Of a DNA stretch of 64,000 nt, positions 31,731 to 60,606 are shown in pieces. Each line of letters starts with the position of its first letter. Positions within the stretch are counted from its first letter, which is position 1. A model generated the notes under the pieces. The model made no database searches, was not told where the DNA came from, and saw only the letters and a program-made list of their open reading frames with translations. Source of the stretch: a virus. Position numbers and translations under genes: made by a program. The DNA lies in the IMG/VR virus record IMGVR_UViG_3300020468_000003, positions 1-64,000 of that record. The stretch is one strand, 5' to 3'.

Positions 31731-34700
31731 TTAATCTGGGAGAGTTTTTCTGATCGCTCCATTATCCCTCAAACCATAACCTCTTCTTTGTATTAGAGGG
31801 TATGTTGAAAGACCTGCAGTAACCGTTCTACCAGAGATTCCTATTGCAATTGGTTCAGAATTTCTTACCAAATTGGTAAGTCTTCCCCAAGAATAGTATC
31901 CGTTAGGATTATATATCGAAGTTCCAAGTGTCTGTATACCAGTTGTTATAGTATCAGACTTAATATTACACACAATTTCATTAGCAACAGGGATTTGATG
32001 AACTCTAAAAATGTTATCAACAAATTCAGTTCCCACTCCGATAATATCATTATCATGAGTGTAAATTGAGGTAACACCACTTCCAACTGTACTATCAGTA
32101 ACAACGATATGATAACCGACTTGTAAATCAGTAGTATTGTTAGTAAAGAACTTGATTGCTAAATCAGTTCCAATACCAGCAACTGTTGAAATACCAGTTA
32201 TGATACCTGTATTACCTTGAACAGATTGAATGTTTGTTACTACCTCATTTATTAATCTTGGTTGAGGTATGATAATTTGTGGGGGTACAGGTGTATTAAG
32301 TGAATTAGTATATCCAAGACCTACATTAGTAACACTTATTGATGCGACTGCTCCATTTGTGATAGTCGCAGTTCCTGTTGCTGTTGTACCAATACCAACT
32401 CCAATGAATTTAGGAGAAGAGAATTTAACATCAACAGTTGCTGTTGTATAACCAAAACCTGTATTGGTTATAGTTGTCGCAGTAACCTTTCCACTTGAAT
32501 CCACTGTTGCGGTTGCAGCAGCAGAAACAGTATTAATCTCATCCAATACAACAGCATCAACATATGCGGTTACTACACTAGACTCATTTTCTTCATAATT
32601 AAAGAATTGTCCATTATCAAGAAGTATATCAGTATCTCCAACATTAACATCTCTGATAATTCTTGAAGTTGGGAATACCATTCCCTCAATAGAATCTCTT
32701 GCTTTAGAAATTTTCTCTCCATTTATAAAGATATCTCTTTTTTGTTTAGTCCAATTAACACTTCTATCATTAAATTCATCAATACCTGCATCAGCATAAG
32801 CATTAGTTTCTATTCTATCTGATGATGCTATATCATAAACTATTCTACCTTCTGATTGATTTACAGAAGTTTGAATACCAGATGCTTTTCTAACTGATAG
32901 AGTATCTCCAACTTTAACACTTTCAGCAATATCTGTTTCTACACTATCAATTGATCTTGTTCCATTATAGAAGAATATAGAAACTTTATCTTCTTTCTTC
33001 GGTGCTTCAAGGAATTGTATTGAAGATCCACCATCAAAGAGATATGCTTTTGTTGGTTCTTGTAGAACCCCATTAATAAACACTACTAATGTAGCATCAA
33101 TATCAATTAATTTTGAATCATTATCATTAGTGTCTATTTGGAAACTAACTAATTCAGCATTGTAGAAGAGTGGGAATACTGTTCTAACATCATCTTGAAG
33201 ATTATCAATAGGATCAATGAAATCTAACTGTCCAAATTGCCAAGAAGCAAATCTATCAGAGAATACCTCTACAACTTCTAATTCAAATGGTTTTAATGGT
33301 TTCTTCAATCCTTTTGCTGTTACCAATCCAACAGGTGCAAACACATCTCCAAGTTGGAATGCATATCCCGCACCTTTGATTGAGAAATCAGAAACTTCAA
33401 AGAACTTAGCAGGAGCAAATGATTTCTTAGATGTTACTGTACCAAAACCAATAGAACTAGTAACAATACCAATGAATGAATTTATAGATGATCTTACATT
33501 TGCACAACCATTAGCATCTGTATTGTATCCAACAGCAGGATCTGCTGTAATTGTTAGATCAAAGACTTGATCTCTTGTTGTATAATCAGACTTAGCAATT
33601 GCTACGTTGTTAATAACTTTATTTGCTAGATCTCTTGCAGCATGGAATACGTAAATTGATTCCTGCTCTTCTCCTGCAACGTGTGCTCCAGTAATATAAA
33701 GATTAGCAGCATCCCATATTTCATCATTACCACCAAATCTTAAGTTAAATGCAACTGCTTCAAGAACATCAACAACATCATCCTTACAATTTTGACTTCC
33801 ACCAGGAACACTAAATGATGGATATACATCTAACATCTCTCCAACAGAAATATCAGCAATAATTAATTTATTCGCTTCTATTAAATCAGCAGCATCTGCA
33901 AATCTATTTGCAAATATTGGACTAGAATTAGCACCTAATTTGAGATTAATTAATTCGTTTATTCCAGTTACAGTTGTTGCTCCAATACCTCTTCTACTTA
34001 CACCTGTAATATCTAAGTCAGTATATGTTGGTTCATCAACTAATACATCTGGGTTTGTGTATCCGCTACCACCATCTACGATAGTAAATTCAACTTGTCC
34101 ACCTGTTCCATTTACTGATGTTCCTGCGTTAACTGTAATTGTTTCAGTTGTTGTTGCACCTATACCCAGAACTGCTCTGTGTATTGGGTCTGTTGCTCTT
34201 GGATATGAATGATCAGTTGCAAAATTGTCTTGAGCACATCTGAATGTCAAACTTCTTGTATGAATTCCAATTGAACCATTCGGACCATCAGTTCTAATAT
34301 TACCAGGTTGTGAACCTACAAATGTATGTGTAGATGTGTCTGATGATGTACCTACAACCACAGTAAATGTATCTGCATCAACTTTAGTGATTGCTAACCA
34401 TCTACCACTAGCAGGATCATCTTCTCTTGGGTAATAATGTTCAGATATATTATTATCTTTTGCACATGTAAATGTAAATGAGTTATCTGCAAGTTGAACT
34501 CTTTCTCCAGTTACCATACCATGAGCAGTGCTTGTATTTACTGTTAATACTCCTGTAGAGGGGTTATAAGACGCACTACTGGTTGTTAATATACCAGCAG
34601 CTGTAAATCCATGTCCTGCACCAAGATTCAATACAAGATCACCTGTAGACGGTTCGTAAGATGCTGTGGATATCGATACACTAGAATTTACACTTGCACC

Positions 34701-43700: not shown

Positions 43701-45491
43701 AAAGGTTATAGCAGTTCCAACCACTATAGATGGTGTTGAAGGTACAGTGTCTTGTCTAAATGTATAAGATGGAAGAGAGTTAGATGCAACATACAAAAAC
43801 TCTTCACCATAAAATCCAAAATCAAGATCTTCGCTATAAACGTTCTGTACGTCCGCAAATAAGTCTGAATATTGTAGAGGTACAAATTTACTTGTAGTCT
43901 TCTTTGGTACTCTTCTAATCGAATGTGGGATGCTTGCATCAGTGCTAAATCCAGTATAATCTAGTGTTACTTGCTTATCATTAAAATCAATAGCAGTAAC
44001 TTTAGCATTTGTTAATTTTACCTCTTTAGTGCTATCGTTTATAATATCAACGCGATCATTTATTTTTAAACTTGCTTTATCAATTGTAGACTTTAAAGTA
44101 AACTGTTTTGTACCTGTATCAATATTAGAACATTCATAACTGGAACTAGTATTGTATATGAAAGAATTAGCAAATCTTTCCTTATCAGTTCTATCTGCTG
44201 CTGATACTGGATTATTAATTACATCTCCTAATTCTTTAACTGTTATTTTTTCATTAACTAATGCAAGACCTGCATCTTTTGCAAGATTTATATTTGATAC
44301 TATTGCTGCTACTCTTAAGTTAACTGGTTTAGTGAAATCTCCATTTTCGTAACCAAATATAATTTTGTCAGATCTAATATCAGCAGCTGCTGTAATATCA
44401 TTATCAATACCAGAACAATTTAAAAATTGGTTTATTGTTTTATCAGTATATGTTATAGTGTTAATACCACTAAGAACAGTTCCAGTTGCATCAAACCCAA
44501 CAGTAGAATCAACTGTAATTACTGAAGATCCAGCTGAAACATTAGTTATAGATTTTGTATTAGGAGTTACTTCAAAATCCCCTTCAATGAGATCTTTATT
44601 ACTATATCCAATAAACAGTGCTAACTTATAATATGTCTTATTATTTCTAGTTAATATTTCAATTTCAGATACTGCTGCTTTTGTTCTAGGATTACTTTTA
44701 CTATAAATTGTTTGTCCTACTAATTTATTAACATCTCCTGATAGTTTTTCTACTAAAACTATTTCTCTTCTAATATATTCTGCATCAGAGGGTTTTAATA
44801 GAAACTGTTCTAAGTCAATAACAGAAGGTGAAACACCAAATAAAACTTTGTAGAGTATTCTAAATGATTCTTCTGTACCTTTTGATTGATAAAAAGTTCT
44901 TGCTTCTTTAATAAAATTACCAGCATCCAATTCAGGTACGAAACCTACATCTTCTAAACCAGGTGTATATGAATATTTTATCTTTTTATAAAATTCTTTT
45001 AAAAATAAAGAACTTAAATTCTGTACTGGAGATTCATTAGTATGATCTGCACTAACCGATGTATCAAATACAAGTTCTTCTGAATCACTAAGACTATGGT
45101 AGGATGTTATTCCACTAAAACCACGTACACAACCTGTAAAAGTATTTGTAGTTAAACCAGTATATGTAATTATTTCATCATCAATCTTAAGAAGACCATA
45201 TTCATTAGGAAATCCTCTTGTACTTTCAACAGTAATAGTACTATCTGTTGAAACAGAATCTGAAGTAAGAGAAGTAACACCTACAATAACTTGTGGTGTT
45301 AATTGGTCAAGACTTAAATACTGGTCAAGATTATCAACCAGGTCAATAGGACCTCCTTGATACTCCTGTGAACGGTAGTATTGCTGAAAGAATTCTACTG
45401 TCTTAGGACTTTGATCTAAAATATATTCAGGTAATTGTCCTTCTATCAGTTGGTGAACCTTTACTCTCGATTCGATACCAGTTTGTATCAT
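31731..45491 (-). CDS. g7: Giant baseplate wedge initiator (gp7-like), 4586 aa
   Basis: QLPE....P....F...YY, FY.SKGT..SF..L..VLFG, DNDYYQ..SYS.KS, V..LVH..G.K.F; lies between g6 and g8; many inserted domains. Confidence 0.8.
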   Translation of the reverse strand: MIQTGIESRVKVHQLIEGQLPEYILDQSPKTVEFFQQYYRSQEYQGGPIDLVDNLDQYLSLDQLTPQVIVGVTSLTSDSVSTDSTITVESTRGFPNEYGLLKIDDEIITYTGLTTNTFTGCVRGFSGITSYHSLSDSEELVFDTSVSADHTNESPVQNLSSLFLKEFYKKIKYSYTPGLEDVGFVPELDAGNFIKEARTFYQSKGTEESFRILYKVLFGVSPSVIDLEQFLLKPSDAEYIRREIVLVEKLSGDVNKLVGQTIYSKSNPRTKAAVSEIEILTRNNKTYYKLALFIGYSNKDLIEGDFEVTPNTKSITNVSAGSSVITVDSTVGFDATGTVLSGINTITYTDKTINQFLNCSGIDNDITAAADIRSDKIIFGYENGDFTKPVNLRVAAIVSNINLAKDAGLALVNEKITVKELGDVINNPVSAADRTDKERFANSFIYNTSSSYECSNIDTGTKQFTLKSTIDKASLKINDRVDIINDSTKEVKLTNAKVTAIDFNDKQVTLDYTGFSTDASIPHSIRRVPKKTTSKFVPLQYSDLFADVQNVYSEDLDFGFYGEEFLYVASNSLPSYTFRQDTVPSTPSIVVGTAITFIGAGNTETNALQADTGELAYSIINFPTDVPFLTGDEVVYEPENVAITGLDTGKSYYVRVLNDKNKIKLYSSNSFIQGDLNLEFDPLIVGVGGKHTFTLRSVHQKQIEPQKLLRKFPLIPRENDGLDTTTETVGMMINGVEIKNYKSQDKIYSGPLTSVNVVNSGTGYDVINPPTMEVANTGSGTTALVRPVLSGSVDKILVDPQTKELDKVISVSITGGGPGNGVALEPVVEQSFLSASFDARLLTFGGGIGETAETITFLGEHNFADGEEVVYRTNGNPALGIGTFAASNADQNRFLIENTKYIAEFVNSKTIRLYFSETDFKTGINTVGFTTTSNSGIHRFRTFNGKKTLKSIRVIEGGSNYQNRELSVKPVGISTIDHLVNFKNHGFQEGDLVEYQNSGTVISGLVTTNQYYIFEKSKDQFRVADAGVAGTIRDNYDSKLYIKLDSVGSGFHQFKYPDIKLNINVSFGAAGTGVITATPYVRGNIIDAYLYETGTGYGSTTLNFERSPSVSIKNGKGASLYPVVVGGKLIRVDVRSRGSEYFSVPEAIVVGDGSGAVVRPIIRDGQLIEVVVISEGTNYTQAKTSISVTSAGKNAILSSSVRSLIINDAQRHGSEYLYPTLKKGLEYVNLSYSNEIASGEFNDTGTTHSPIIGYAYDGHPIYGPFGYSDPLDPTSGVRPLQVGYKLDPSIIVDRPSGFANGFFIEDYRYDATGDLDIHNTRFCKTPEYPNGTYAYFAGISTDGLFTPKFPYFVGKRFRSLNQLDDKDQSFDLNSSELVRNTFPHQLGITGSRNDFIIESQSFFSQESEIESTTKGSITGVDIRNAGINYKVDDVINFDNEGTNGGGASAIISKVEGATVTSIASSVSEFTNCTLQWSNNKITVKVDPFHTFNTNDVISISGLSTFVDQIAGLRRVAISTENFNIYQDIPANGSSGIMTDIYVSSIPNSLSIGSTIGIGTEVLSVLNIFNERGIIRAKRGVTGTAHTTTTRGFVYPNTFEIPIESSFFDSSLNEKVFFNPTESVGVGSTAGIESTIEYPLGDRNYDISIANQSIYLPNHPFRSGERVILRKNAGGSSISVANTESSATFDIGDTDQNLFVINKSSDFIGIVTQSGLTTSTNGLFFFSNGSDNYEYSLEPTKNKIICVVQKNDAVISVSTAHNLQPDDQISLSVVPNRSVGIGTSTKVRVKYNFDIEKLVIDPIGFTSTAIDTLDNIVTLNNHPFVTGEKIYYNAQDEVATGLEPGLFYVYKIDKNRFKLALTYEDSIASPPKIVSIGSTGGAEQELSAINPRLFPTKGNNVVFDLSDSTLQGFKFNLYTDQTFENQFVSVANTTTFSTSGVGTVGVTSTASFTLTYTDALIDVVPDPTQPLFYNVEKGGFISTADSTVVNFNQITFDNSKYDGTYSVVGVASTSFVISLLKDPELNLYTPDNTTTMKYSTDSKNALGPISKLKMVSEGNDYKQLPGISSITTLNGSDAVLFAQSPTVGKIKEIRVIDQAFEYNTDKSLRPEANIPSTLELKSNLTITDVQIVDGGNNYTTAPDIAIVDSITGEKIDDGILTTEVQSSSVSSINIFEQPSGLNFNSKNLFTINNSNGVGISTMQTSSSGIVTCFLTTPLLGFSTSIFTVGEQIFVEGITKNGIGGSGFNSEDYGFRFFDVISYENLIPAKLKFSVAGLTTNPGLADTTQGSFATIVKRSNYPVFKVTQGKSKFVSGEQLFVNGESTDLNVTTVLPDYIKTSGKFEVKSGDSLRGVQSGSSGTIEAIIKSDAKFDIDFSVRANRGWKKNTGELNNDIQVLPDNDYYQNLSYSVKSPIQYKDSIDVINRLVHTTGLKNFVDVGLSTNTSVGIGVTTVKSLIFTDLIDESRVDTIYGFAQARDADNQLIEGRNTSKFLEFRFKSFVDSIICKTNRVLVIDDVSKQFTNKENVNDTFIDLDESGKDFARYLVQIRSTNNLQNAIYEMIVLHDPQFESAFTLRKGYLSSTGIANTTTNEYNWTELEFATLEGNVDEFDTLSLRFTPNDVFNIDYDVKFIKDTFNGNVVGLASTSIGLIKNQSTNAIVGVGSTNTILEYDSDNFDAMHVHLHLNANDLYTQNYTELYVHHDGTDTYVSDYYVDSDSAQGFNGNDFSNFVASVANGKLTLSYTNPLTVPVTVRANAVGFGSTSNADGALRFKIGTSQADGNERSAYFSGNSTVGTGETTIFSADATLTNSIKSLVSVSYGATYALHQILTLSPDSTDTYSTQYPFLSIGSTTGIGTFGAAIDGSNVAVKFYPDSSVTGIVTIKSFNEVLYQEVEIENLYQNINYGSIKTQEFGIGLFDATNSSRINKTSFRMDYQDTPIFQKFWNPSETTVLNKVTGEFSITNHFFETGEELIYRAGSSVAGLTSTSIGIGVTADSIGIVTNKLPYQVYAIRTNNEKFKIATRPEYAAAGIAVTFTDEGSGNKHSFEMVKKLEKAIISIDDVIQSPLSYTPIVYDLEANGGQIGTASTVFSMTGITSIGNGDILKIDNEFMKVGGVGLGTTSVGPISDGDVKLVEVIRGYVGTAATLHTDGTAARIYRGSYNFAGQNIFFTDPPKGSGLVTINESNLPKGFSEFNGRVFLRKDYTNNLIYDDVSNEFTGIAQTFTVRQSGVSTTGIETGSGLVLINGIFQTPTTDNNAGNNFFYKQSGSDSQITFTGITSTDGTPVVSLQDPNQNAFPKGGLIISLGSTTGLGFAPLLGADVLPVIGAGGSISGIIGIPTFTTPGKSISTASYDFNTGILDLTTGTAHNLNAQNQDVYLEGARFTSALGITTYGNSTLGNIFRITEIVDSTNIKVKIGISTFDQTYVGFGTVYPYYNSTARAFGSGYNGRVAIGVSVYEPGHVGNTANITAEVKTNKHKFWYSTANNIYYGGNYLHTFDSASTGAVNVQSGSEVGNQKTPNGASYDAISGVLTLSFSSAHGMSTSDTITLDEGSINFKCARDHFATVHAYPRPHDPIAGVTTAVTVTSSTAFTINVGASVNSSVSISTASYEPSTGDLVLNLGAGHGFTAAGILTTSSASYNPSTGVLTVNTSTAHGMVTGERVQLADNSFTFTCAKDNNISEHYYPREDDPASGRWLAITKVDADTFTVVVGTSSDTSTHTFVGSQPGNIRTDGPNGSIGIHTRSLTFRCAQDNFATDHSYPRATDPIHRAVLGIGATTTETITVNAGTSVNGTGGQVEFTIVDGGSGYTNPDVLVDEPTYTDLDITGVSRRGIGATTVTGINELINLKLGANSSPIFANRFADAADLIEANKLIIADISVGEMLDVYPSFSVPGGSQNCKDDVVDVLEAVAFNLRFGGNDEIWDAANLYITGAHVAGEEQESIYVFHAARDLANKVINNVAIAKSDYTTRDQVFDLTITADPAVGYNTDANGCANVRSSINSFIGIVTSSIGFGTVTSKKSFAPAKFFEVSDFSIKGAGYAFQLGDVFAPVGLVTAKGLKKPLKPFELEVVEVFSDRFASWQFGQLDFIDPIDNLQDDVRTVFPLFYNAELVSFQIDTNDNDSKLIDIDATLVVFINGVLQEPTKAYLFDGGSSIQFLEAPKKEDKVSIFFYNGTRSIDSVETDIAESVKVGDTLSVRKASGIQTSVNQSEGRIVYDIASSDRIETNAYADAGIDEFNDRSVNWTKQKRDIFINGEKISKARDSIEGMVFPTSRIIRDVNVGDTDILLDNGQFFNYEENESSVVTAYVDAVVLDEINTVSAAATATVDSSGKVTATTITNTGFGYTTATVDVKFSSPKFIGVGIGTTATGTATITNGAVASISVTNVGLGYTNSLNTPVPPQIIIPQPRLINEVVTNIQSVQGNTGIITGISTVAGIGTDLAIKFFTNNTTDLQVGYHIVVTDSTVGSGVTSIYTHDNDIIGVGTEFVDNIFRVHQIPVANEIVCNIKSDTITTGIQTLGTSIYNPNGYYSWGRLTNLVRNSEPIAIGISGRTVTAGLSTYPLIQRRGYGLRDNGAIRKTLPD

Positions 45492-51093: not shown

Positions 51094-51516
51094 TCATACT
51101 GCGAACCTCTTCTTTCCATGGTAGAAGTTGTATTCTCTGCACATGGTTCTAACCTGTAGATCTGTATCCCATTCTGTATCCTCTGGAAATAGGTTGTCTA
51201 ACGTTCTGATTCTGCTGATCTTCTGCCAGACTGAAGAGGTGCTATGCTTAGTGTTTGGAAACTCAGAAAAGAATACTGCTCTTGCTGATTCCATGTCCGC
51301 ATGGTTCAGTAGGTACGCATTTAATAGGCACTCTGTCTCAGCATCTGTATAAGGTGTCTTTTTCTTAGATGCTGTTCTTTTAGCGTCCTCTAAAAGTTTT
51401 CTTCCGTGCTTGAATAGCAGTCTGTCTGCTCTCTCAAAGTTGTGTAGTCCTAAGTACTTAACCTGTTCCTTAAGTTCGTTGAATGTGTCGATTGCTAACT
51501 GGTCTGTTGAGTTCAT
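51094..51516 (-). CDS. Hypothetical protein with a Myb/SANT-like helical segment
   Basis: PYTDAETECLL.AY........A...F...FP...HS.SSV.QK...I. Confidence 0.6.
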   Translation of the reverse strand: MNSTDQLAIDTFNELKEQVKYLGLHNFERADRLLFKHGRKLLEDAKRTASKKKTPYTDAETECLLNAYLLNHADMESARAVFFSEFPNTKHSTSSVWQKISRIRTLDNLFPEDTEWDTDLQVRTMCREYNFYHGKKRFAV

Positions 51517-51539
51517 AATGTTTGTTTGTGTATACTACA

Positions 51540-51574
51540 ATTATAAAGGATAAAGGGGGTACTTGTAAACCCCC
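51540..51574 (-). promoter_or_regulatory. Early-type promoter plus hairpin, without the palindrome (module 0)
   Basis: TTTACA, 18 bp spacer, TATAAT; GGGGGT/ACCCCC hairpin; start ATACACAAAC. Confidence 0.7.
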
Positions 51575-51586
51575 GAAAGGAAAATA

Positions 51587-51763
51587 TTAATCTTTGTCTG
51601 TATATTCTCCTTCTACAACTCTATTACCGTTAAGAGCATACCAGACTAACTGAGCATGTCCGAACTGTTGTGCCATGTCGTAACATAGGTCGAATCCGAA
51701 GTCATTTGTAACTTCTTCTTTAATATCTGTATTTGGAACTTCGATGAATTTTTGAATGAACAT
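51587..51763 (-). CDS. Small hypothetical protein (58 aa)
   Basis: Manual translation MFIQKFIEVPNTDIKEEVTNDFGFDLCYDMAQQFGHAQLVWYALNGNRVVEGEYTDKD. Confidence 0.7.
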   Translation of the reverse strand: MFIQKFIEVPNTDIKEEVTNDFGFDLCYDMAQQFGHAQLVWYALNGNRVVEGEYTDKD

Positions 51764-51800: not shown

Positions 51801-51862
51801 ATTATAAACAATTTTTTGTCTCTTTTGGGAAAATAGTGGACAGTTTGTTCGACTGTCCACTA
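51801..51862 (-). promoter_or_regulatory. Early module 1 (palindrome + -10)
   Basis: TAGTGGACAGT-TTGTTCG-ACTGTCCACTA at 51834-51862; TATAAT at 51801-51806, 29 bp from the GTGGAC arm. Confidence 0.85.
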
Positions 51863-52186: not shown

Positions 52187-52245
52187 ATTATAAACACTAT
52201 TCCCCCAGAAAAGGGGGTTTAGTGTGCACTTTGTTAACTGTCTAC
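52187..52245 (-). promoter_or_regulatory. Early module 2
   Basis: GTGTGCACT-TTGTTA-ACTGTCTAC, CCCCC/GGGGG hairpin, TATAAT at 29 bp. Confidence 0.85.
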
Positions 52246-52416
52246 TTGAGAGCATGCATAATCCCAAGGTGCGGGTTCGCATATTTTTTCAATCAGTGTG
52301 TCAAAGTCATTTTCTGATTCTGCGTCAACCCATCCATTCTCTATAAAAAATTGTCCCATTTTTACGAGGACTGATTCCTCTGCTTCAGTCATTGTCAATT
52401 CACGTTCCCATTTCAT
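52234..52416 (-). CDS. Acidic hypothetical early protein
   Basis: ORF track; stop lies inside the module 2 palindrome. Confidence 0.7.
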   Translation of the reverse strand: MKWERELTMTEAEESVLVKMGQFFIENGWVDAESENDFDTLIEKICEPAPWDYACSQVDS

Positions 52417-52577
52417 GATTCAATCTCCAAAGAATTAATAAAGTTTGTACAATAACGATTAAATCGTGTAAGAGATTCAAACGGTATTTGGTCGTCTTCT
52501 TCACCGACGTAGTAAAAAAGTTTGTTAATGTCGCTCTGAAAAGTCTCCAGAGCGATTTCGTTTTTAGTGTAACTCAT
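52413..52577 (-). CDS. Small hypothetical protein (54 aa)
   Basis: Manual translation MSYTKNEIALETFQSDINKLFYYVGEEDDQIPFES...; ATGA overlaps on both sides. Confidence 0.7.
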   Translation of the reverse strand: MSYTKNEIALETFQSDINKLFYYVGEEDDQIPFESLTRFNRYCTNFINSLEIES

Positions 52578-52792
52578 ACCAGTGAATCCAGTCTGGACTG
52601 TGGAATTTCTTTTCCATCTCTAGCACCCCACTTGTTGATATGGCGTGAAGTTGTTACTGACCAAAACTGCTCTGTTTTTACGAATCCTTCACCGAAGATG
52701 TAAGCAGCAACAGGTGTGCGGTATGAAAACAAAATTCTTGCTTCTTTTGTTTCAACCTCGGTCATGTTTGATGCGATTGGTGTGAGTTGCAT
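52574..52792 (-). CDS. Hypothetical early protein
   Basis: ILFSY.TPVAA...T...WS.TTSRHINKW; AGGAG RBS. Confidence 0.8.
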   Translation of the reverse strand: MQLTPIASNMTEVETKEARILFSYRTPVAAYIFGEGFVKTEQFWSVTTSRHINKWGARDGKEIPQSRLDSLV

Positions 52793-52818
52793 TGATGCTC
52801 CTTTTTGTGTATATGTTT

Positions 52819-52877
52819 ATTATAATAGAAAACCCCCAGTGAATGGGGGTTGAGTGGACACTTATTTAACTGTCTAC
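52819..52877 (-). promoter_or_regulatory. Early module 3
   Basis: GTGGACACT-TATTTA-ACTGTCTAC, AACCCCCA/TGGGGGTT hairpin, TATAAT at 29 bp. Confidence 0.85.
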
Positions 52878-53032
52878 TTGAGACCTGCTAATAATTCATC
52901 ATTCTTTCTTCTGAGTTCTTTTAACTCCGCACGATTAAAACGACGATAATCAATTTCGGTTGCAATTGCCATGCCTACCGTATATAATGCATAGCAGCCG
53001 CCAACTAATATTAAAAGTTCAATTCCTGTCAT
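52874..53032 (-). CDS. Small membrane-anchored hypothetical protein
   Basis: Probable start MTGIELLILVGGCYALY with AGGAGG RBS; hydrophobic N-terminus. Confidence 0.65.
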   Translation of the reverse strand: MTGIELLILVGGCYALYTVGMAIATEIDYRRFNRAELKELRRKNDELLAGLK

Positions 53033-53100
53033 TTTTGGGTTCCTCCTTGGGAAGTTGTTGTTGTTTGTAATTTTTAAGAAGTTCTGCGTAAACTTCTGGA

Positions 53101-53385
53101 TCAAGCGGTTGCATAAGACCTCCCGAATCTTTCGGCATAATATCCGATATTTACATAGTCCCTTTTAAGGGTGCATATCTGGGTAATGTCTGCCAGTGCT
53201 AAAAGATGGTCGGGTGTGTAAACTGATGGATCGTCCCATTCAGAAACCGCAACTGCATTTTCAACGTCCATAGTTGTACGTCCGAGTTCGTCCGTAACTG
53301 CGGGACAACTCATAAGAAGTCCATCTTCAGCAATCCAGAATCCCATTCCGAAAGAGTGTGAGTAATGAATTTCAGGTTTTGGCAT
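53101..53385 (-). CDS. Hypothetical early protein
   Basis: Probable start MPKPEIHY with GGAGG RBS, downstream of module 4. Confidence 0.7.
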   Translation of the reverse strand: MPKPEIHYSHSFGMGFWIAEDGLLMSCPAVTDELGRTTMDVENAVAVSEWDDPSVYTPDHLLALADITQICTLKRDYVNIGYYAERFGRSYATA

Positions 53386-53407
53386 TTGCCTCCGTGTGTA
53401 TGTCTTA

Positions 53408-53465
53408 ATTATAGTACCCATTAACAACGAATGGGAAAGTAGTGGACACTTTAACCAACTGGCAC
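53408..53465 (-). promoter_or_regulatory. Early module 4
   Basis: GTGGACACT-TTAACCA-ACTGGCACA, CCCATT/AATGGG hairpin, TATAAT at 28 bp. Confidence 0.85.
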
Positions 53466-54377
53466 AAAGCGACCACTATTAAAATTTGCGTATGAGAAAA
53501 TATGTCTATAAACTAATTTGTGCATACCGAACTTATTCGTCATTACGAATCCTTCGCCTATGTGCTTGTCATAACCTAAGTATGCTTGAACTGGATCGCT
53601 GTGAGTCAATCTGCTCATAACGTCCGCTTTAGTTTCTTGAACTAACTTCCAGTAGTTTATCAACCTTCCATGAATCCCGTAGTTAACGGGATCCACTTCT
53701 TTCCCTTCCCTATAGTCTTTATTTATTTGTTTCTTTAACTCTTTAGCGGTTTTATTATCTACGAACTGGATCCCCTTCGCCATATGTCTAATGAAATCAA
53801 TAGACGGTTTTAAGTTAGATATTGGATCGTTTTCTCTCTCCTTGACTTCTGCTCTGATGAATAAACAGTCGTCCATCTTTTCCCAGTTGTAATAATATGG
53901 AAAAGATTTCATAGGGTGTGCTTCAGCATTTGCAAGATTGTCTGTGCACTGTGTGGTGATGTATTGCGTGTGAGGTGCAATAATGATCTTTTGATCTACC
54001 ACGTCAGGGAATTTATATGTTAAGGTATTAGGTTTGTATTCATCAGAACCACCAAAACCAATAAAGTCCCCCTGAAAAACCATATAACCTAGATGGTGTG
54101 GTATGTGGTCGAAACACGCATGAAGAATTTTTGCAACTTCTCCTGTGTGATTTGCGTCAATATCCTTGTGTGAGTAATTGATCTTGATTTTGATCTTGTT
54201 AAAGACGCTTTTAGTACCCACGAAAAATCTGTGAGTCTTTGGATGATTACCCCATACAACTGCGGGTGCACCATCATATTTTAATGAGATGTTCCCACCA
54301 CCAGTAAACCAATCTAGCACGGATAAATCCCCTGTTAGGATTGTGTCTTCTGGATGTTCTAGGTGTGTGTTTTTCAT
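53451..54377 (-). CDS. Ligase/nucleotidyltransferase-like protein (KxDG family)
   Basis: HLEHPED, LKYDGAP (motif I), FQGDF (III), EGFVM (IV), HKLV (V). Confidence 0.65.
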   Translation of the reverse strand: MKNTHLEHPEDTILTGDLSVLDWFTGGGNISLKYDGAPAVVWGNHPKTHRFFVGTKSVFNKIKIKINYSHKDIDANHTGEVAKILHACFDHIPHHLGYMVFQGDFIGFGGSDEYKPNTLTYKFPDVVDQKIIIAPHTQYITTQCTDNLANAEAHPMKSFPYYYNWEKMDDCLFIRAEVKERENDPISNLKPSIDFIRHMAKGIQFVDNKTAKELKKQINKDYREGKEVDPVNYGIHGRLINYWKLVQETKADVMSRLTHSDPVQAYLGYDKHIGEGFVMTNKFGMHKLVYRHIFSYANFNSGRFVPVG

Positions 54378-54383
54378 ACCTTT

Positions 54384-54442
54384 ATTATAACGAATAAAAG
54401 ACCCTCTGTGTAGAGGGTGTGTGACACTTAATTAACTGTCAT
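54384..54442 (-). promoter_or_regulatory. Early module 5 (leaderless)
   Basis: TGTGACACT-TAATTA-ACTGTCAT, ACCCTCT/AGAGGGT hairpin, TATAAT 6 nt before the ATG. Confidence 0.8.
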
Positions 54443-54614
54443 AATCCGAGCCATCATATTCGCCTTCATAGTTATCATCGTAAATACGAACGGCTAACTC
54501 CGCATCTTGGCTTAATTTAATCCCTGCTCTATCAAGTGCTTCCCAAATCTTGTTAGAAATGTGGCTGTGTTCGTCTTCGGGGATATGTTGAAAAAGGTTT
54601 AAGTAGTTTTCCAT
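54432..54614 (-). CDS. Acidic hypothetical early protein
   Basis: ORF track; stop lies in the module 5 palindrome. Confidence 0.7.
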   Translation of the reverse strand: MENYLNLFQHIPEDEHSHISNKIWEALDRAGIKLSQDAELAVRIYDDNYEGEYDGSDYDS

Positions 54615-54889
54615 TAGAATTGCTCCCTCCTATCGTGGATAAATTCTTGCAATTCTTCATACGCACCTTCTTGATCTAATACCATAGGTGCAAGAAATTC
54701 ATACAAGTTTTCATCATAATCATCAATCTCATCTCTGATTTCATCCTCCGTGCATCTGTTCAATTCGGCAAGATAAGTTGTACGAATCCAGTCTGCCATT
54801 TGTTCGGTGTTCATATCGTTGATATAAAATTCAACGAATTCTTCCCTTAAGTCTTGGATTTGCTCTGCTGAAAATAATGATGTAATCAT
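54614..54889 (-). CDS. Acidic helical protein (paralog family A)
   Basis: LREEFVEFYINDMNTEQMADWI. Confidence 0.75.
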   Translation of the reverse strand: MITSLFSAEQIQDLREEFVEFYINDMNTEQMADWIRTTYLAELNRCTEDEIRDEIDDYDENLYEFLAPMVLDQEGAYEELQEFIHDRREQF

Positions 54890-55131
54890 AGTTCTAAAAG
54901 TTTTAAATTGAATGGTTTTAATTTATCATCGAAGAAATCTTCTCCTCCGAAATCTATCATTTCCCCGAATGCACCCTCTTGCCCATCAACAATTTTAATA
55001 TTTTCAAGGTTGTGGTGTAGATTGTCTCTTACATATTCTCTGAGTTGATTAACTTCCATATCTTCTACGAAGTCGTTAACCCAACTACGAACCAACTCAT
55101 CATATTTGGACTGTACCAGTTCTAACTTCAT
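54886..55131 (-). CDS. Acidic helical protein (paralog family A)
   Basis: LVRSWVNDFVEDMEVNQLREYV. Confidence 0.75.
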   Translation of the reverse strand: MKLELVQSKYDELVRSWVNDFVEDMEVNQLREYVRDNLHHNLENIKIVDGQEGAFGEMIDFGGEDFFDDKLKPFNLKLLEL

Positions 55132-55346
55132 GCTACCAACCCCTCTAGAACTAATTGTTGCTGTGGAATTTCTTCTTCTTTGATTTCTACAGTTTCATAA
55201 TCGAATTCTTCCCAATCAAAATCATAGTAATCCCAACCATTTTCTGCTTCCTCTTTGGCTTCTTCAAGACTACTTGCCTTAACTGTAAAGTACTCCATCT
55301 TAGTACATTTACGAGTTACATAAAACTCATGTTCATAAGGTTTCAT
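55128..55346 (-). CDS. Acidic hypothetical early protein
   Basis: V.A.S.EEA.E.A motif; translationally coupled. Confidence 0.75.
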   Translation of the reverse strand: MKPYEHEFYVTRKCTKMEYFTVKASSLEEAKEEAENGWDYYDFDWEEFDYETVEIKEEEIPQQQLVLEGLVA

Positions 55347-55489
55347 TAGAACTGCCTCCAGTGGTAAGAATTTTCTCCGTTAATCTGTTTGATTAACGCA
55401 TCTGCCTTTGCCTGATCTTCTTTTAGGAAGTCGTCTGCAAATTTGATCAAGTCTAATAGTCCTTGAACATCTTTGTTTTTGTTGTCCAT
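55346..55489 (-). CDS. Small hypothetical protein (47 aa)
   Basis: Manual translation MDNKNKDVQGLLDLIKFADDFLKEDQAKADALIKQINGENSYHWRQF; TAATG overlap. Confidence 0.7.
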   Translation of the reverse strand: MDNKNKDVQGLLDLIKFADDFLKEDQAKADALIKQINGENSYHWRQF

Positions 55490-55513
55490 GTAGAACCCCT
55501 TGTGTATGTCTTA

Positions 55514-55570
55514 ATTATAGTACCCATTAAATACGAATGGGAAAAAAGTGGACAGTTGTTAAACTGTCCT
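55514..55570 (-). promoter_or_regulatory. Early module 6
   Basis: GTGGACAGT-TGTTAA-ACTGTCCT; near-identical to module 4; TATAAT at 28 bp. Confidence 0.85.
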
Positions 55571-55999
55571 AGTTGTCTTTGGGATTTCTACGGGTTTCGT
55601 GTAGAATCCTGTAATCTTCCATGTCTCGTCGTCATGTGTGATGTCTGTTTCATACGCATGCCATTTACCTTTCAAGAAGATGTAAAGGAATTCGGAACCG
55701 CAGTCAATTTGTGCCAGTTCATCAAGATTTTTTGATAGGACTGGTCCCTCATCTTTCCCACCATAATATTCAACGTGACCTTCGCAATCCTCGAACTCTT
55801 CGGTTTCCTTGTTATACTTGCTTGTAGAAAAGCACGAAGACATATTGCCACCGTCGATGAGTTCGCGAACTGTCTCATCTGTGTTGTAGTGCTCTTCAAG
55901 AGTTACACCCAACCATTCAGGATATCCATCCCAGTGATGATAAACAGAAAGAATGGAATCATCTTGTAATACATAACCAATTCGTGAACGTGTTGACAT
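55559..55999 (-). CDS. Hypothetical early protein (HWDGYP family)
   Basis: MSTRSRIG...SVYHHWDGYP..LG..L...Y...LIDGG.MSS. Confidence 0.8.
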   Translation of the reverse strand: MSTRSRIGYVLQDDSILSVYHHWDGYPEWLGVTLEEHYNTDETVRELIDGGNMSSCFSTSKYNKETEEFEDCEGHVEYYGGKDEGPVLSKNLDELAQIDCGSEFLYIFLKGKWHAYETDITHDDETWKITGFYTKPVEIPKTTRTV

Positions 56000-56020
56000 A
56001 ATGTTTTTAAAAAATGGATT

Positions 56021-56139
56021 GTAGAGGTACTTGCACCAGAGTAATTAACTACTGGGGTCGATCTCGACATTTCAAGAGTGGGACTAAGATGCATCTGCCC
56101 TGTTAAGGTGTCTCCCGCTTCACTATCTCTGCCCTCTAC
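56021..56139 (-). ncRNA. Candidate structured RNA / 5' leader (~119 nt)
   Basis: Starts at the predicted TSS of module 7; terminal helix GUAGAGG/CCUCUAC; internal hairpins GUCGA-GA-UCGAC and CCAG...CUGG. Confidence 0.55.
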
Positions 56140-56145
56140 TCTTAT

Positions 56146-56203
56146 ATAATAAACGATTTTGAGTCGTTTTCAATAAAAAGTGGACACTTATTTAACTGTC
56201 CAC
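56146..56203 (-). promoter_or_regulatory. Early module 7
   Basis: GTGGACACT-TATTTA-ACTGTCCAC; AAACGA/TCGTTT hairpin; TATTAT at 28 bp. Confidence 0.8.
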
Positions 56204-56434
56204 TCTTGATTTTTTGAAGTCGCATTTCATGTAGTCTTGGACTTCATCAATAACTTCACCGAAGTAATCACCCCAATAATCCTTCGCATCATTTAGAAAT
56301 TCATCGTCAGTTTGACCATCAACATATTTGTCCATGTCGTTGTGAACATACTCAACTAAATCTTTAGTGTCCATGTTATCAACATATCTCTCAACAAAGA
56401 AAGATTTGAGCTCATTAATTAAGGCTTTGTCCAT
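56192..56434 (-). CDS. Acidic helical protein (paralog family A)
   Basis: Probable start MDKALINELKSFFVERYVDNMDTKDLVEYV (TAATG overlap). Confidence 0.75.
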   Translation of the reverse strand: MDKALINELKSFFVERYVDNMDTKDLVEYVHNDMDKYVDGQTDDEFLNDAKDYWGDYFGEVIDEVQDYMKCDFKKSRVDS

Positions 56435-56583
56435 TATCCCATTTCCTCCAATATTTGCTGTGCACGAACTCCTGCAACATACTGAGCATCTTCGCAATGT
56501 GGATCTAATCCTGCTTCTTCAATCTGTAATAGTAGATCTTCAAAGATTCCTTCTAGTAGTTCTTCGTTTGCTAGGCAACTCAT
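56434..56583 (-). CDS. Small acidic hypothetical protein
   Basis: Probable start MSCLANEELLE with AGGAG RBS. Confidence 0.7.
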   Translation of the reverse strand: MSCLANEELLEGIFEDLLLQIEEAGLDPHCEDAQYVAGVRAQQILEEMG

Positions 56584-56610
56584 TTTGATCTCCTTTGTTT
56601 GTATATTATT

Positions 56611-56667
56611 ATTATAAGTCCCCACTCTTACGAATGGGGATTTAGTGGACACTTTTTAAACTGTCCT
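56611..56667 (-). promoter_or_regulatory. Early module 8
   Basis: GTGGACACT-TTTTAA-ACTGTCCT, TCCCCA/TGGGGA hairpin, TATAAT at 28 bp. Confidence 0.85.
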
Positions 56668-57130
56668 ATAAGTACCCTGCAGATTCACATCCTGGTTCAT
56701 CATAGAACCACTGGATCGAAACTTTTTTATATTGTCGTTTCAGTTCAGAGGCAACGTCTTCGGGTGGAGCCCATGCTGTGTCGAAATGGATCTGGAAATA
56801 ATCCTCTTCGTCGTCTCCCCATTCGACTGCATCCTTACGAATGTCCCATTTAGTTCCCCAGTTATGAACATTCCAGTCGTACCATCTGTCATCATTTTTT
56901 CCATCTGGGAAGTAATAGGATTCATAGATGAGTTTGCCATCCTTATTAAATTCCTGCCTTAGAGATGGTAATTCACCTTTATCATTCGGCATTTTTTTCC
57001 AGTCTGGTGGTGGAATGATCTTGGCGAATGGATTGTCTTGAGAGAAAATTTCTCTGATCTCATTGATCTCTTGAACACTTTCTTCATCCCATCCAGATAC
57101 TGTTACTCGGTTACTGCACCAATTTGGCAT
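56666..57130 (-). CDS. DUF1281/YubB-like ferredoxin-fold protein
   Basis: MPNWC.N, WYDW...NWGTKWD, F.TAW.PP, YDEPG...AG. Confidence 0.75.
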   Translation of the reverse strand: MPNWCSNRVTVSGWDEESVQEINEIREIFSQDNPFAKIIPPPDWKKMPNDKGELPSLRQEFNKDGKLIYESYYFPDGKNDDRWYDWNVHNWGTKWDIRKDAVEWGDDEEDYFQIHFDTAWAPPEDVASELKRQYKKVSIQWFYDEPGCESAGYL

Positions 57131-57360
57131 TAGTTTAACCTCCAGTCAATCTTAAGGTATTCTGGATCAGCATAGTTCATCAACTGTTCTGGTTCCATGT
57201 CGAATATGAATTCTTCCATGAAATATTGAACTGAGAAGTTCCCTAATTCTTCAGCACAACGAAAGACCATTCCGATCTGTTCATTGTTTAGACCTAGAAC
57301 ATCAATACAGTAAGAGATGTCCTTTTCAAGATCTGAAATTCTTTTGGAAGATTTTTTCAT
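57130..57360 (-). CDS. Hypothetical early protein
   Basis: ORF track; SV.YF.EEF motif. Confidence 0.75.
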   Translation of the reverse strand: MKKSSKRISDLEKDISYCIDVLGLNNEQIGMVFRCAEELGNFSVQYFMEEFIFDMEPEQLMNYADPEYLKIDWRLN

Positions 57361-57385
57361 AAAAACCCTGTTTGTGTATGTTCTT

Positions 57386-57444
57386 ATTATAAAGGCAAAA
57401 GGGGGTCATGTAACCCCCTAGTGGACACTTTTTTAACTGTCTAC
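57386..57444 (-). promoter_or_regulatory. Early module 9
   Basis: GTGGACACT-TTTTTA-ACTGTCTAC, GGGGGT/ACCCCC hairpin, TATAAT at 29 bp. Confidence 0.85.
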
Positions 57445-57944
57445 CTTAAGTAAAGATATCCTCCTGCCCAATCTACGAAGTTTGGATCTAATAATTTTTG
57501 TAGATCCTTTGGTTCGCAAAATGAGAATCTAACGTGCTTTGTATGCGGTGCCTTCCATGATGCGGGTTTGTATACGTTACCTAGGATCGATGGATCCTTT
57601 CCTACGAATGCATGAACGCTACCGTCGCGATATTCATTCCTATCTTGAAAAGTGTCGAACTCTTCTTGAATGATTTTGTAATACTTCCTGCCTACCTCAT
57701 AACGAAATCTCATTAGATTCGCAGTCCCGTCTTTCATCGCGTCTAACTGTTGTTTCGCATAACTTGAAAGATCTTCGCGCTCTAACTCTAGATTTCTTGT
57801 TAAGGACCTCTTGTGGTAGATGCGATAATTCTCAGTAATTGCTCTACAATAATCTTTTATGTAAGATAAAAGAAACGTTTGATCCGTTTGCTTTACTGAT
57901 TTTCCAATGATAAAATCATTTTTGGATCCAATTACTTGTTGCAT
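57441..57944 (-). CDS. Hypothetical early protein
   Basis: Probable start MQQVIG downstream of module 10; GRKY.KI, SVHAFV, G.VYKPASWKAP, DWAGGYLY. Confidence 0.8.
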   Translation of the reverse strand: MQQVIGSKNDFIIGKSVKQTDQTFLLSYIKDYCRAITENYRIYHKRSLTRNLELEREDLSSYAKQQLDAMKDGTANLMRFRYEVGRKYYKIIQEEFDTFQDRNEYRDGSVHAFVGKDPSILGNVYKPASWKAPHTKHVRFSFCEPKDLQKLLDPNFVDWAGGYLYLR

Positions 57945-57965
57945 AAGATTTGTGTATGTAATACT

Positions 57966-58025
57966 AGTATAAAGTCCCCGCGCATGTAATGCTACGAAGG
58001 TTGTGCCACTATTTAAAGTGTCTAC
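57966..58025 (-). promoter_or_regulatory. Early module 10
   Basis: TGTGCCACT-ATTTAA-AGTGTCTAC; TATACT at 30 bp. Confidence 0.75.
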
Positions 58026-58246
58026 CACATGTCATCTGGTGTGTCATATGATGTAAAATCAGTCAGCCGTTTTTCTTCTCCTGCTTCTAGAGGTACCGAG
58101 AAGTTAATTTCAAACTCGTCGCTGTAATCTTTATAGTTGGTGATTTCCACGGGACATTCATTCAACCATTCTTGAAACATCTCATATTTTGTTTTACGTG
58201 GTTTCTTACGCATTTCGTCGTACATTGCCTGTTGATAAGTTTTCAT
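58022..58246 (-). CDS. Hypothetical early protein
   Basis: ORF track; F.EWL.ECPV. Confidence 0.75.
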   Translation of the reverse strand: MKTYQQAMYDEMRKKPRKTKYEMFQEWLNECPVEITNYKDYSDEFEINFSVPLEAGEEKRLTDFTSYDTPDDMW

Positions 58247-58449
58247 TTAAGTTGTACCTCGTAGTCAATAAATTTGATGCACCATCCTGCTGATGCTGTG
58301 ATCTCTTCAATAAGATCGTCTTCATCATCCGCGTCCCAAACACCGAGTGCGAGATCCCGCAATTCGATTTCCTCATCGAATGTGAGTTTGAATCCGTTGG
58401 CATAATCGTCATCGTAATCAAACTCAATTTCTGTTACGTTAAATTTCAT
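58243..58449 (-). CDS. Acidic hypothetical early protein
   Basis: VT.IEFD...W.ADDEDDL.EEIT..GWCI..IDY. Confidence 0.75.
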   Translation of the reverse strand: MKFNVTEIEFDYDDDYANGFKLTFDEEIELRDLALGVWDADDEDDLIEEITASAGWCIKFIDYEVQLK

Positions 58450-58583
58450 CTCGTAATGATTTCCTGTAACGATGCAAGATCATCCCAAGTTTCATCATCT
58501 TCTTGAATGAATGGACAGTCCATTGCTCTGTCGAGTGCAGTACTGAAGCGATCTAGTTGCTCATCAGTAAGTTTGAAGTTCAT
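58446..58583 (-). CDS. Small acidic protein (45 aa)
   Basis: Manual translation MNFKLTDEQLDRFSTALDRAMDCPFIQEDDETWDDLASLQEIITR; GGAG RBS. Confidence 0.7.
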   Translation of the reverse strand: MNFKLTDEQLDRFSTALDRAMDCPFIQEDDETWDDLASLQEIITR

Positions 58584-58605
58584 AGAAATCTCCGTGTATA
58601 AACTC

Positions 58606-58663
58606 ATTATAGACAAAAAAATCCCCCTTGCGGGGGACTAGTGGACAGTTTCTAGACTGGCAT
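58606..58663 (-). promoter_or_regulatory. Early module 11
   Basis: GTGGACAGT-TTCTAG-ACTGGCAT, TCCCCC/GGGGGA hairpin, TATAAT at 29 bp. Confidence 0.85.
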
Positions 58664-58897
58664 AGGCAATCCATAACTGATATGATACATATCCATCATA
58701 TAATCTCTTACTCTCTCCCGATCAAGGGAATCTCCATCTCCCCACGTAACCTTAAATTCAGCAAGCGGGTCGCTGCAGTCATCAAGATATTTGAGCGTTG
58801 CATATGCGATTTGCTCTTTAGAGACGTTGAGGGGATACAACCCACCTTGCCCGTAGAATGAAAACACATAATCGATGAACTCCTGAAAATTGTGCAT
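58652..58897 (-). CDS. Hypothetical early protein
   Basis: FIDYV.SFYG..GLYP...GDSLDRERVRD. Confidence 0.8.
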   Translation of the reverse strand: MHNFQEFIDYVFSFYGQGGLYPLNVSKEQIAYATLKYLDDCSDPLAEFKVTWGDGDSLDRERVRDYMMDMYHISYGLPMPV

Positions 58898-59050: not shown

Positions 59051-59307
59051 CTAAAATCTTCGCCACTCCCCCTGCCTTATAATATCTCTGTGTTCCTTTC
59101 CTGATATCCAATTCTCGTACTGGCACACTCGCTGTTGCCTTCCCTTTAAAATATGTTACACTTCCTCGAACAAACCATACAAAGGTATGTATATAAAACC
59201 AAAATTTAAACTGTCACATTGTGCCAATCTAGATGCGTCACATGTCGTATAATGTATTACATGCATGAATCTCGATGTGTATCATATGTTACTAGTACAT
59301 GCGTATC

Positions 59308-59655
59308 CTCGTCGAGATGTGTGCCCCTGCTCATATGTGTGTATGATATGTGCAGGCTCGTCGAGATACATGTGCGCAAGCTCGTCTAGATGCATGCGTT
59401 CATGTGTGCGAGCTCGTCGAGATTATGCATAATGATAGATGGATAGCTCGTAGAAATCCTGATTGTTGTCTCGTCGAGAGTTATATTCCTCGTCGAGATC
59501 TAAGTCTTGTGTATAAGACTGTGTACTCTCGTCGAGATCGTCACCTGTTTCATAGTCGAGATCGTACCAGTCTGCGCAGTCTTCGTACATAGTCGAGATG
59601 AATAGAATACTTATAGTATAACACATATCTCGACTAGAGGCAAGCTCGTCGAGAT
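59308..59655. repeat. Cluster of CTCGTCGAGA(T) repeats
   Basis: Exact CTCGTCGAGA at 59308, 59357, 59413, 59470, 59489, 59528, 59645; variants at 59381, 59447, 59552, 59589 and an inverted one at 59627. Confidence 0.9.
59423..59590 (-). CDS. Very acidic Tyr/Asp-rich peptide (55 aa)
   Basis: MYEDCADWYDLDYETGDDLDESTQSYTQDLDLDEEY...; preceded by the promoter TTGCCT-17-TATACT at 59615-59643. Confidence 0.5.
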   Translation of the reverse strand: MYEDCADWYDLDYETGDDLDESTQSYTQDLDLDEEYNSRRDNNQDFYELSIYHYA

Positions 59656-59769
59656 TCACAGTAGTATATATGTACGCAAAAGGATCTATTGTTACAATAT
59701 AGTAACATTGTACTTATAAGACTACAAGTACTTCGCGACCCTGTGTGTTAGGAAATCGCGATCCGTGGG

Positions 59770-60069: not shown

Positions 60070-60606
60070 GTGTCATGGTTTCTTGAAGTGAGAAAGCATA
60101 AAGTTTTGAATGAAATAGAAGACTTAGAGGATTTCAGTGGTTACTCGATTGATACTGATGGAAACCTTTGGTCTCTGAAGTATAAAGTACCGAAGCTAAG
60201 AAAACCTGTATGGTCTGGTAAAGATGAATGTGCATATCTTACCTGTAGATTGAGAGATGATAATGGTAAAGCAAAGACTCTCTACATTCATAAGTTGGTA
60301 GCATTAGCATTTCTTCCGTGTGATGATCCTACCCGAAGGGTTGTGCATAAGAACAAAGATCGAAGTAACAACCAACTTGAAAACTTAGAGTGGATTGCTA
60401 ACGTAAAGGAGAAGAAGAAAGCATTAGACTTCGTATTACAGGAAGAACTGGTAAATAAGATACAGCGTATTCATGTAGTTGCTCAAAAGAAAGGAATTCG
60501 GGATGTGTCGTCTGATTCTTATTCATTTACCACGAAGATGATCGAAGATGCCATTGAAGCATACATTAAAGAGTATGGACTACGTAAAATTGATAGAGAC
60601 TTATGA
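60070..60606 (+). CDS. NUMOD4-type HNH endonuclease with an RHH-like C-terminal domain
   Basis: GYSID.DGN.WS, Y....L......KT..IH.LVA.AF, V.HKN.DR.NN...NLEW; the main plus-strand gene in the window. Confidence 0.8.
   Translation: MSWFLEVRKHKVLNEIEDLEDFSGYSIDTDGNLWSLKYKVPKLRKPVWSGKDECAYLTCRLRDDNGKAKTLYIHKLVALAFLPCDDPTRRVVHKNKDRSNNQLENLEWIANVKEKKKALDFVLQEELVNKIQRIHVVAQKKGIRDVSSDSYSFTTKMIEDAIEAYIKEYGLRKIDRDL

Follow-up and report, generated by a model that had tools for sequence, protein, structure and literature searches.

Promoter-early stem-loop (PeSL) cassettes, for which Arbiol reportedly supplied a precedent in T4-type phages in 2010, are small units that join a terminator to a promoter and lie densely in the hyperplastic regions of T4-like genomes. 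The genes beside them are small and of unknown function, the units coincide with insertions, deletions and replacements between relatives, and homologous recombination between the units is the mechanism that has been proposed; mini-circles have been shown for them. Such cassettes are described from the T4-type myoviruses RB49/phi1, PST/T4 and nt-1/KVP40 (Comeau 2014, PMC4122927), and no dense PeSLs were reported in the cyanophage S-PM2 (Puxty 2015, PMC4503421). The window analysed here comprises positions 1 to 64,000 of the IMG/VR virus record IMGVR_UViG_3300020468_000003, which is 105 kb long and 49% complete. Between 51.8 and 58.7 kb it holds an array of eleven units, each built on a 24-bp imperfect dyad, and in ten of them the stop codon of the gene upstream falls inside the dyad. 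The original prediction, made from this window, took the in-site stops as a sign that genes are captured or exchanged precisely at the palindrome, in the manner of an integron. Judged by analogy of architecture, the array is instead the cyanophage counterpart of the T4-type PeSL cassettes, and we think it probable that compaction of the genome places the stops and that the composite dyad units are shuffled by general or short-homology recombination. The PeSL idea, that portable terminator/promoter units serve as shuffling points, would thereby be extended to marine cyanophages.

The eleven units lie within 7 kb and adjoin the baseplate genes gp25/gp6. In the direction of transcription all eleven modules have the same order: the end of a gene, the dyad, a spacer in which a GC-rich hairpin is usually present, the hexamer TATAAT, five to six bases, the motif ATACA, a ribosome-binding site and an ATG. 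The dyad follows the consensus GTrGACAGTT-wAAw-AAsTGTCCAC, and its pattern is matched 13 times in the window, both strands counted, as compared with 0.23 matches expected from shuffled sequence. This 7-kb stretch holds the bulk of the composite units of the 105-kb record. The units, in order of transcription, are as follows.

58606-58664, minus strand: unit 11; dyad 58641-58664 containing the TAG (stop at 58652) of an 81-aa gene; spacer hairpin of -14.3 kcal/mol with a T-run; TATAAT 58606-58611
57966-58026, minus strand: unit 10, degenerate; dyad 58003-58026 with a TGGCACA-type proximal arm and TAG at 58022; 31-nt spacer; TATACT 57966-57971
57386-57444, minus strand: unit 9; dyad 57421-57444 with TAG at 57441, the end of a DUF7717 gene; hairpin with a T-run; TATAAT 57386-57391
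56611-56668, minus strand: unit 8; dyad 56645-56668 with TAG at 56666, the end of a 154-aa gene; strong hairpin without a T-run; TATAAT 56611-56616
56146-56203, minus strand: unit 7; dyad 56180-56203 with TAA at 56192; weak spacer hairpin; TATTAT 56146-56151; long leader to ATG 55999
55514-55571, minus strand: unit 6; dyad 55548-55571 with TAA at 55559; hairpin; TATAAT 55514-55519; spacer and start region near-identical to those of unit 4
54384-54443, minus strand: unit 5; dyad 54420-54443 with a TGTCACA-type proximal arm and TAA at 54432; terminator-like hairpin; TATAAT 54384-54389; predicted promoter preceding the DUF6267 gene
53408-53465, minus strand: unit 4; dyad 53442-53465 with TAA at 53451, the end of the DUF6267 gene; hairpin; TATAAT 53408-53413
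52819-52877, minus strand: unit 3; dyad 52854-52877 with TAG at 52874; terminator-like hairpin; TATAAT 52819-52824
52187-52245, minus strand: unit 2; dyad 52222-52245 with a TGCACAC-type proximal arm and TAA at 52234; hairpin; TATAAT 52187-52192
51801-51859, minus strand: unit 1; dyad 51836-51859 with the upstream stop outside it, at 51868; spacer without a hairpin; TATAAT 51801-51806

Three isolated dyad/-10 copies were seen in the same record beyond the window, at 71081-71160, 77650-77692 and 79932-80013 (-).

A set of 130 units was collected from the window and 16 related metagenomic arrays; eight of the relatives share the DUF6267 gene at 85-100% protein identity, and others were found via a second gene. 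When two near-duplicate arrays had been dropped, 109 units in 15 non-redundant arrays were left. The distance from dyad to -10 is 28-29 nt in 97 of the 130 units. The -10 itself is near-invariant, with 1.5-2.0 bits per position, and the short ATACA start region is conserved. A canonical -35 was looked for across the units, and the corresponding positions hold at most 0.5 bit; an extended -10 (TGn) is likewise absent. The mean folding energy of the spacers is -8 kcal/mol, better than that of shuffled sequence (z = -2.8), and 48 of 109, about 5 of them among the 11 units of the window, have the look of an intrinsic terminator, a hairpin followed by a T-run. We infer that the unit is a combined terminator and promoter. 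Like a PeSL, it would then join a spacer stem-loop terminator, here predicted from sequence, to a promoter. It differs from a PeSL in three respects. The PeSL promoter is of the sigma70 type, with a -35, N17 and a -10 beside the stem-loop, whereas the unit described here has no -35; the hairpin here lies inside the promoter, between the 24-bp dyad and the -10, at a fixed spacing of 28-29 nt; and the stop codon of the upstream gene overlaps the unit.

The two arms of the dyad are unequally conserved, the proximal arm carrying 10.0 bits of information and the distal arm 5.8. Watson-Crick pairing between them is poor: pair 8/17 can form in 28% of units and pair 5/20 in 35%, and at 8 of the 12 pairs the figure lies between 22 and 58%. 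A role for the dyad as an RNA or DNA hairpin was considered and was rejected on account of this poor pairing. Since the dyad is conserved as a sequence and not as a structure, it is most likely the site of a dimeric protein upstream of a -35-less promoter.

Variant units with the same geometry and with TGTCACA or TGGCACA arms occur in the cultured phages P-HM2 and Syn9; these variants share the half-site and have a 28-31-nt geometry. P-HM2 scanned with our first dyad pattern gave no match, because its arms are TGTCACA/TGGCACA, and the later pattern, used in the Syn9 search, skipped TGTCCAC, so that the counts are lower bounds. A search for the perfect dyad across 596 Gb of prokaryote genomes returned mostly chance-level matches. 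The lone Synechococcus match, at 2800-2880 of a 193,981-bp contig labelled as a Synechococcus metagenome-assembled genome (L182, JBJBBP010000001.1), is a full unit of the phage type, with a dyad, 29 nt, TATAAT and ACATAACAAAC; the contig is probably a mis-binned cyanophage.

A literature search for a published cyanophage dyad found nothing usable. Doron et al. in 2016 reportedly described an early-gene regulatory element of T4-like cyanophages that consists of an upstream element and a -10 and precedes small early-type genes of cyanomyoviruses; the dyad may correspond to its motif. On the host side, GTGCCA-N10-yGGyCAT lies 31-32 nt before the -10 of two (L303, L306) of the four Cyano-1 (RF01701) small RNA (sRNA) genes in one Synechococcus genome (G004), Cyano-1 being what we take to be the Yfr2 family. 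The element CGRE1 of the host yfr2 sRNA promoters is a 21-22-nt palindrome that starts 55-57 nt upstream of the start site and is bound by the GntR-type protein PMM1637/PlmA (PMC6191309). The sites before the two Cyano-1 genes resemble variants of the phage dyad: P-HM2 has their half-sites and spacing (GTGCCA-N10-TGGCAT), and a GTGCCAG variant of the distal arm occurs among the units of the present array. The commonest half-site here, however, is GTGGACA/TGTCCAC and not TGCCA, and host PlmA is only a candidate for the protein that would bind the dyad.

The ten stops that had been placed within the palindrome all lie inside the 24-bp dyads, at the positions listed above, which are given as low coordinates; the stop of module 1 is outside, as had also been noted, 9 nt beyond its dyad. 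The C-termini quoted in the original prediction are correct (SQVDS*, SRVDS*, SDYDS*, TTRTV*, FVPVG*, LPMPV*, LAGLK*, SAGYL*, YLYLR* and DDMW*), and so is the 18-nt identity shared by modules 2 and 3, TTAACTGTCTACTTGAGA, which is exact at 52234-52251 and 52866-52883 and passes the dyad by 6 nt into two unrelated genes in different frames. In the 15 arrays, 99 upstream open reading frames (ORFs) have 40 codons or more, and 75 of them terminate within the dyad, the stop lying in the centre in 47, in the distal arm in 23 and in the proximal arm in 5. The remaining stops comprise 13 upstream of the dyad and 11 downstream of it. The consensus dyad has a TAA in two of the three frames and so closes them, and two-thirds of the stops would therefore be expected to fall within it. 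Among the 86 ORFs that reach the dyad, the 75 that stop inside exceed this expectation with p = 1e-5; for the window alone, where 10 of 10 stop inside, p = 0.017. A stop in the remaining frame is supplied by dyad variants such as TAGGACAG, GTAGACAG, GTTGA or TTTTAA.

At 52245-52260 the 60-aa gene ends with SQVDS* in the window (TAA, dyad position 10) and with KHALK* in the 96%-identical relative L160 (TAG, position 2). The dyad has a stop in each of these two frames and thereby absorbs the frame change near the 3' end of this gene.

Is an exchange event needed to place the stops? At all ten dyad-less junctions of the array the stop and start codons overlap by 1 or 4 nt (TAATG or ATGA). Moreover, 12 gene families have members that adjoin a dyad as well as members that lie mid-module, and their C-termini end within 0-3 residues of each other. 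In one family the ends are ...SLEIES* and ...ALEVEVDS*; in another, ...AGYL* is closed by a TGA in one genome and in others by a TAG that forms dyad positions 1-3. The dyad is therefore flush with the native end of the gene, to which it contributes no more than the last few codons. Erosion of the distal arm by this coding overlap was considered and rejected, since the arm matches its consensus equally well where it is coding and where it is noncoding (6.2-6.5 of 10 positions); the genes adapt to the dyad rather than erode it. Because the dyad-less junctions overlap by 1 or 4 nt and the C-termini of orthologues match, compaction suffices, and the best reading of the in-dyad stops is that they are the local version of the overlap between stop and start seen at every other junction of the array, with no exchange event required. 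The two alternatives that the original prediction had itself named, general recombination and genome compaction, are on these grounds better readings of the array than the one it preferred.

The following sequence of steps may be envisaged. In a genome that spares no bases between functional elements, a gene would abut whatever element comes next, and at a unit this element is the dyad. Translation would have to end before the terminator hairpin is reached, and a TAA or TAG is available in the dyad at that point, so the last 0-4 codons of the upstream gene would be read from the distal arm or the A/T-rich centre. The rarity of stops in the proximal arm would keep the last ribosome clear of the hairpin. 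If transcription starts about 7 nt past the -10, the dyad would lie at about -65 to -42, and a dimeric protein bound there could replace recognition of a -35. The units would also act as portable patches of homology, between which general or short-homology recombination and gene conversion could shuffle the blocks that they bound, and the same turnover of genes would take place at dyad-less TAATG junctions. In such an arrangement accessory genes would be packed so tightly that the operator of one promoter gives the preceding gene its last codons and its stop, and gene ends in these arrays should be predictable from the dyad, which may be of use in annotation.

That the palindrome-bearing units bound the variation in gene content among relatives, with several junctions inside the palindrome or at its edge, is borne out by gene-by-gene maps of nine arrays (the window and L001-L008). 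The relatives have the same architecture and different genes, and dyad-bounded blocks have been gained, lost or replaced in eight of them. Thus L003 and L006 have two additional genes, as one block, between the 146-aa gene and the module that follows, L002-L005 have an extra module before the 72-aa gene, L007 contains several novel single-gene modules, and L002 has lost the module of the 58-aa gene. The nearest relative of the window also shifts from module to module, being L003 at first, then L002, with L004 further on. The units that precede two different genes have one type of spacer and start region in common within a genome and another type in other genomes, a pattern that points to gene conversion between units. 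Near-identical spacers were found in 9 of 399 comparisons of non-orthologous units within genomes, as against 48 of 5016 between genomes, which makes them 2.4 times commoner within a genome (p = 0.035).

An alignment of breakpoints across relatives, which the original prediction had proposed as its check, gave a divided answer. The pairs of units compared had either the downstream gene or the upstream gene in common, but not both. In four independent cases homology starts within the distal arm or the centre; in three it starts at the dyad's 5' edge, and in three more around the -10 or start region. Units L003:3967 and L006:4033 have an identical dyad, spacer and TATAAT and are unrelated from the next base onward, and in another group of units the break lies at the border of dyad and spacer. 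In several pairs with the same upstream gene, similarity has already disappeared within the last 30 nt of that gene, and about a third of the pairs in which both flanks are conserved have unrelated spacers. The junctions are thus spread over the unit and the gene ends.

In the closest relative, L160, which is 93-98% identical, there are only two clean indels. These are single genes of 211 and 177 bp, located exactly at TAATG-type junctions and flanked by short direct repeats of 7-12 nt. The two junctions, and a third dyad-less feature, are the following.

56428-56440, minus strand: dyad-less TAATG stop/start junction; site of the extra 211-bp gene in the closest relative, flanked by the 7-bp repeat TAAATGG
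54603-54618, minus strand: dyad-less TAATG stop/start junction; site of the extra 177-bp gene in the closest relative, flanked by 12-nt imperfect repeats starting with TAATG
51540-51574, minus strand: dyad-less hairpin/-10 unit, with hairpin 51555-51574 and TATAAT 51540-51545; precedes a 140-aa gene

Across the nine arrays, gains and losses of genes at dyad-less junctions are about as numerous as those at units. The units do take part in recombination, and this equality sets a limit on the PeSL idea, as plain TAATG junctions acquire gene-sized indels with equal ease. Turnover of the cassette kind would accordingly need no dedicated exchange system in these phages. A stronger role for the dyad can be imagined, in which recombination starts preferentially at the units, prompted by the bound protein or by a cut in the dyad. 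Lytic cyanophages would then carry out a semi-programmed exchange of cassettes, and the usual crossover zone would be the distal arm together with the final codons and stop that it holds of the upstream gene; we regard this as improbable. At 51300-51590 a patch of 76-79% identity to L160 was observed inside DNA that is otherwise 97-100% identical. The patch extends from the stop of the 58-aa gene and the dyad-less hairpin/-10 unit to the middle of the 140-aa gene, and it is a recombination tract between close relatives.

Several considerations weigh against the account that combines compaction with general or short-homology recombination. Promoter, start-site and terminator activities are all predictions from the DNA, and a convincing terminator is missing from about half of the spacers. 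The excess of in-dyad stops over the two-thirds expectation means that dyad variants have to some extent been tuned to the incoming frame, which is compatible with compaction and is not proof of it. Part of the difference in identity between modules could come from differing selective constraint and not from exchange. The within-genome excess of shared spacers is modest. Finally, the junction pairs are not independent events, and most relatives are 70-88% identical, which blurs the positions of the junctions.

These reservations must be set beside the evidence on other explanations. In an integron-like or dif-like exchange, an unseen recombinase of the phage or host would act at the palindrome centre, and the in-site stops would be the scars of capture. 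Such a process would account for variable gene blocks bounded by units and for several instances in which homology starts in the distal arm or centre where the upstream gene differs and the downstream gene is shared (leading into the DUF6267 gene, g52 and g26, and L165 compared with L166/L169). Integron attC and pdif sites are likewise imperfect palindromes at cassette boundaries, sometimes with stops in the site, and the dyad centre, often GTTAAAT, happens to fit the integron core GTTRRRY. However, no enzyme of the required kind was found. The original prediction had remarked that no recombinase was visible in the window; widening the search to the 105-kb record also revealed no tyrosine or serine recombinase, PF00589 and PF00239 being absent from this 49%-complete record, from three related fragments and from the complete P-HM2 genome, so that neither an integrase nor an Xer-type enzyme was found there. 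The site is also ill suited, since the arms here, unlike those of attC, are conserved in sequence and not in pairing, which makes an attC-like folded strand unlikely. Integron cassettes are promoterless, whereas every unit here has its own -10 and ribosome-binding site, and thus a predicted promoter of its own. Integrons use one fixed crossover point, but the junctions here are also found at other places, among them the 5' edge of the dyad, its border with the spacer, the position right behind the -10 and the 3'-terminal parts of genes, and the clean single-gene indels, with their 7-12-nt repeats, are palindrome-free and at TAATG. Because no such enzyme was found in these sequences, the site structure is unfit, each unit carries a promoter and the junctions are scattered, precise exchange at the palindrome fails as an explanation, and we consider it very unlikely. 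A search for a RecA-family protein (UvsX) in the record found none, a result that is uninformative about the phage given that the record is half a genome.

It might also be argued that the position of the stop is itself functional. By ending 10-24 nt before the spacer hairpin, a gene would set the distance of the ribosome from the terminator, or from a weak RNA hairpin formed by the dyad, and so tune termination, read-through or the stability of the mRNA 3' end. The scarcity of stops in the proximal arm and beyond it (5 and 11 of 99), the excess of in-dyad stops over the frame expectation and the existence of centre variants that give a stop in whichever frame arrives are all in keeping with this idea. 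Yet compaction, together with the need to stop before the terminator, yields the same distribution, the 13 units whose upstream stop precedes the dyad show no obvious difference, and the dyad makes a poor RNA hairpin, so we assign this explanation a low probability. One may ask, lastly, whether the pattern is an artefact of ORF calling, in which open frames simply run until they meet a dyad stop and the genes, or their ends, are not real. The consensus dyad does close two of three frames, and the excess in the window alone is weak. Against this, the ORFs are conserved as proteins in relatives with the same C-termini (FVPVG*, YLYLR*, AGYL*), three of them have Pfam domains, downstream of each comes a unit that has a ribosome-binding site and an ATG of its own, and the excess is strong over the 15 arrays. 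An artefact of this kind is scarcely credible. Compaction with general or short-homology recombination between units remains the explanation that we prefer.

The window is DNA of a T4-like cyanomyovirus, a virus of marine cyanobacteria, as indicated by the flanking baseplate genes, by DNA matches to Prochlorococcus and Synechococcus myoviruses and by an equivalent region in P-HM2. All genes between 51.5 and 59 kb are on the minus strand, and the array is a small-gene hyperplastic region transcribed from that strand. Its flanks encode baseplate wedge subunits (gp25/gp6-like), a ferredoxin and 2-oxoglutarate-Fe(II) oxygenases. Megablast of the array against GenBank phages gave only short matches, of at most 93 nt, to Prochlorococcus and Synechococcus myoviruses, and its close relatives are all metagenome contigs. 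The complete P-HM2 genome has an equivalent small-gene region in the same place, ahead of gp25/gp6/gp7. Downstream of the gp25/gp6-like genes of the window lies a single ORF of 4586 aa (31731-45491, minus strand), the position of which matches that of the giant gp7-like baseplate protein of P-HM2.

The array is headed, on the opposite strand, by an HNH endonuclease gene (60070-60606, plus strand; PHROG 959/59). Homing endonucleases are a known driver of local gene exchange in T4-like phages. A cluster of CTCGTCGAGAT-type repeats occupies 59200-59660, just upstream of the array in the order of transcription. Within the array, unit 7 is followed by a leader of about 140 nt (56000-56145) before the ATG at 55999. 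L003, L005, L006 and L160 all conserve the beginning of this leader (GTAGAGGGCAGAGA...), and L006 has a similar sequence after another of its units as well; the leader may be a small structured RNA.

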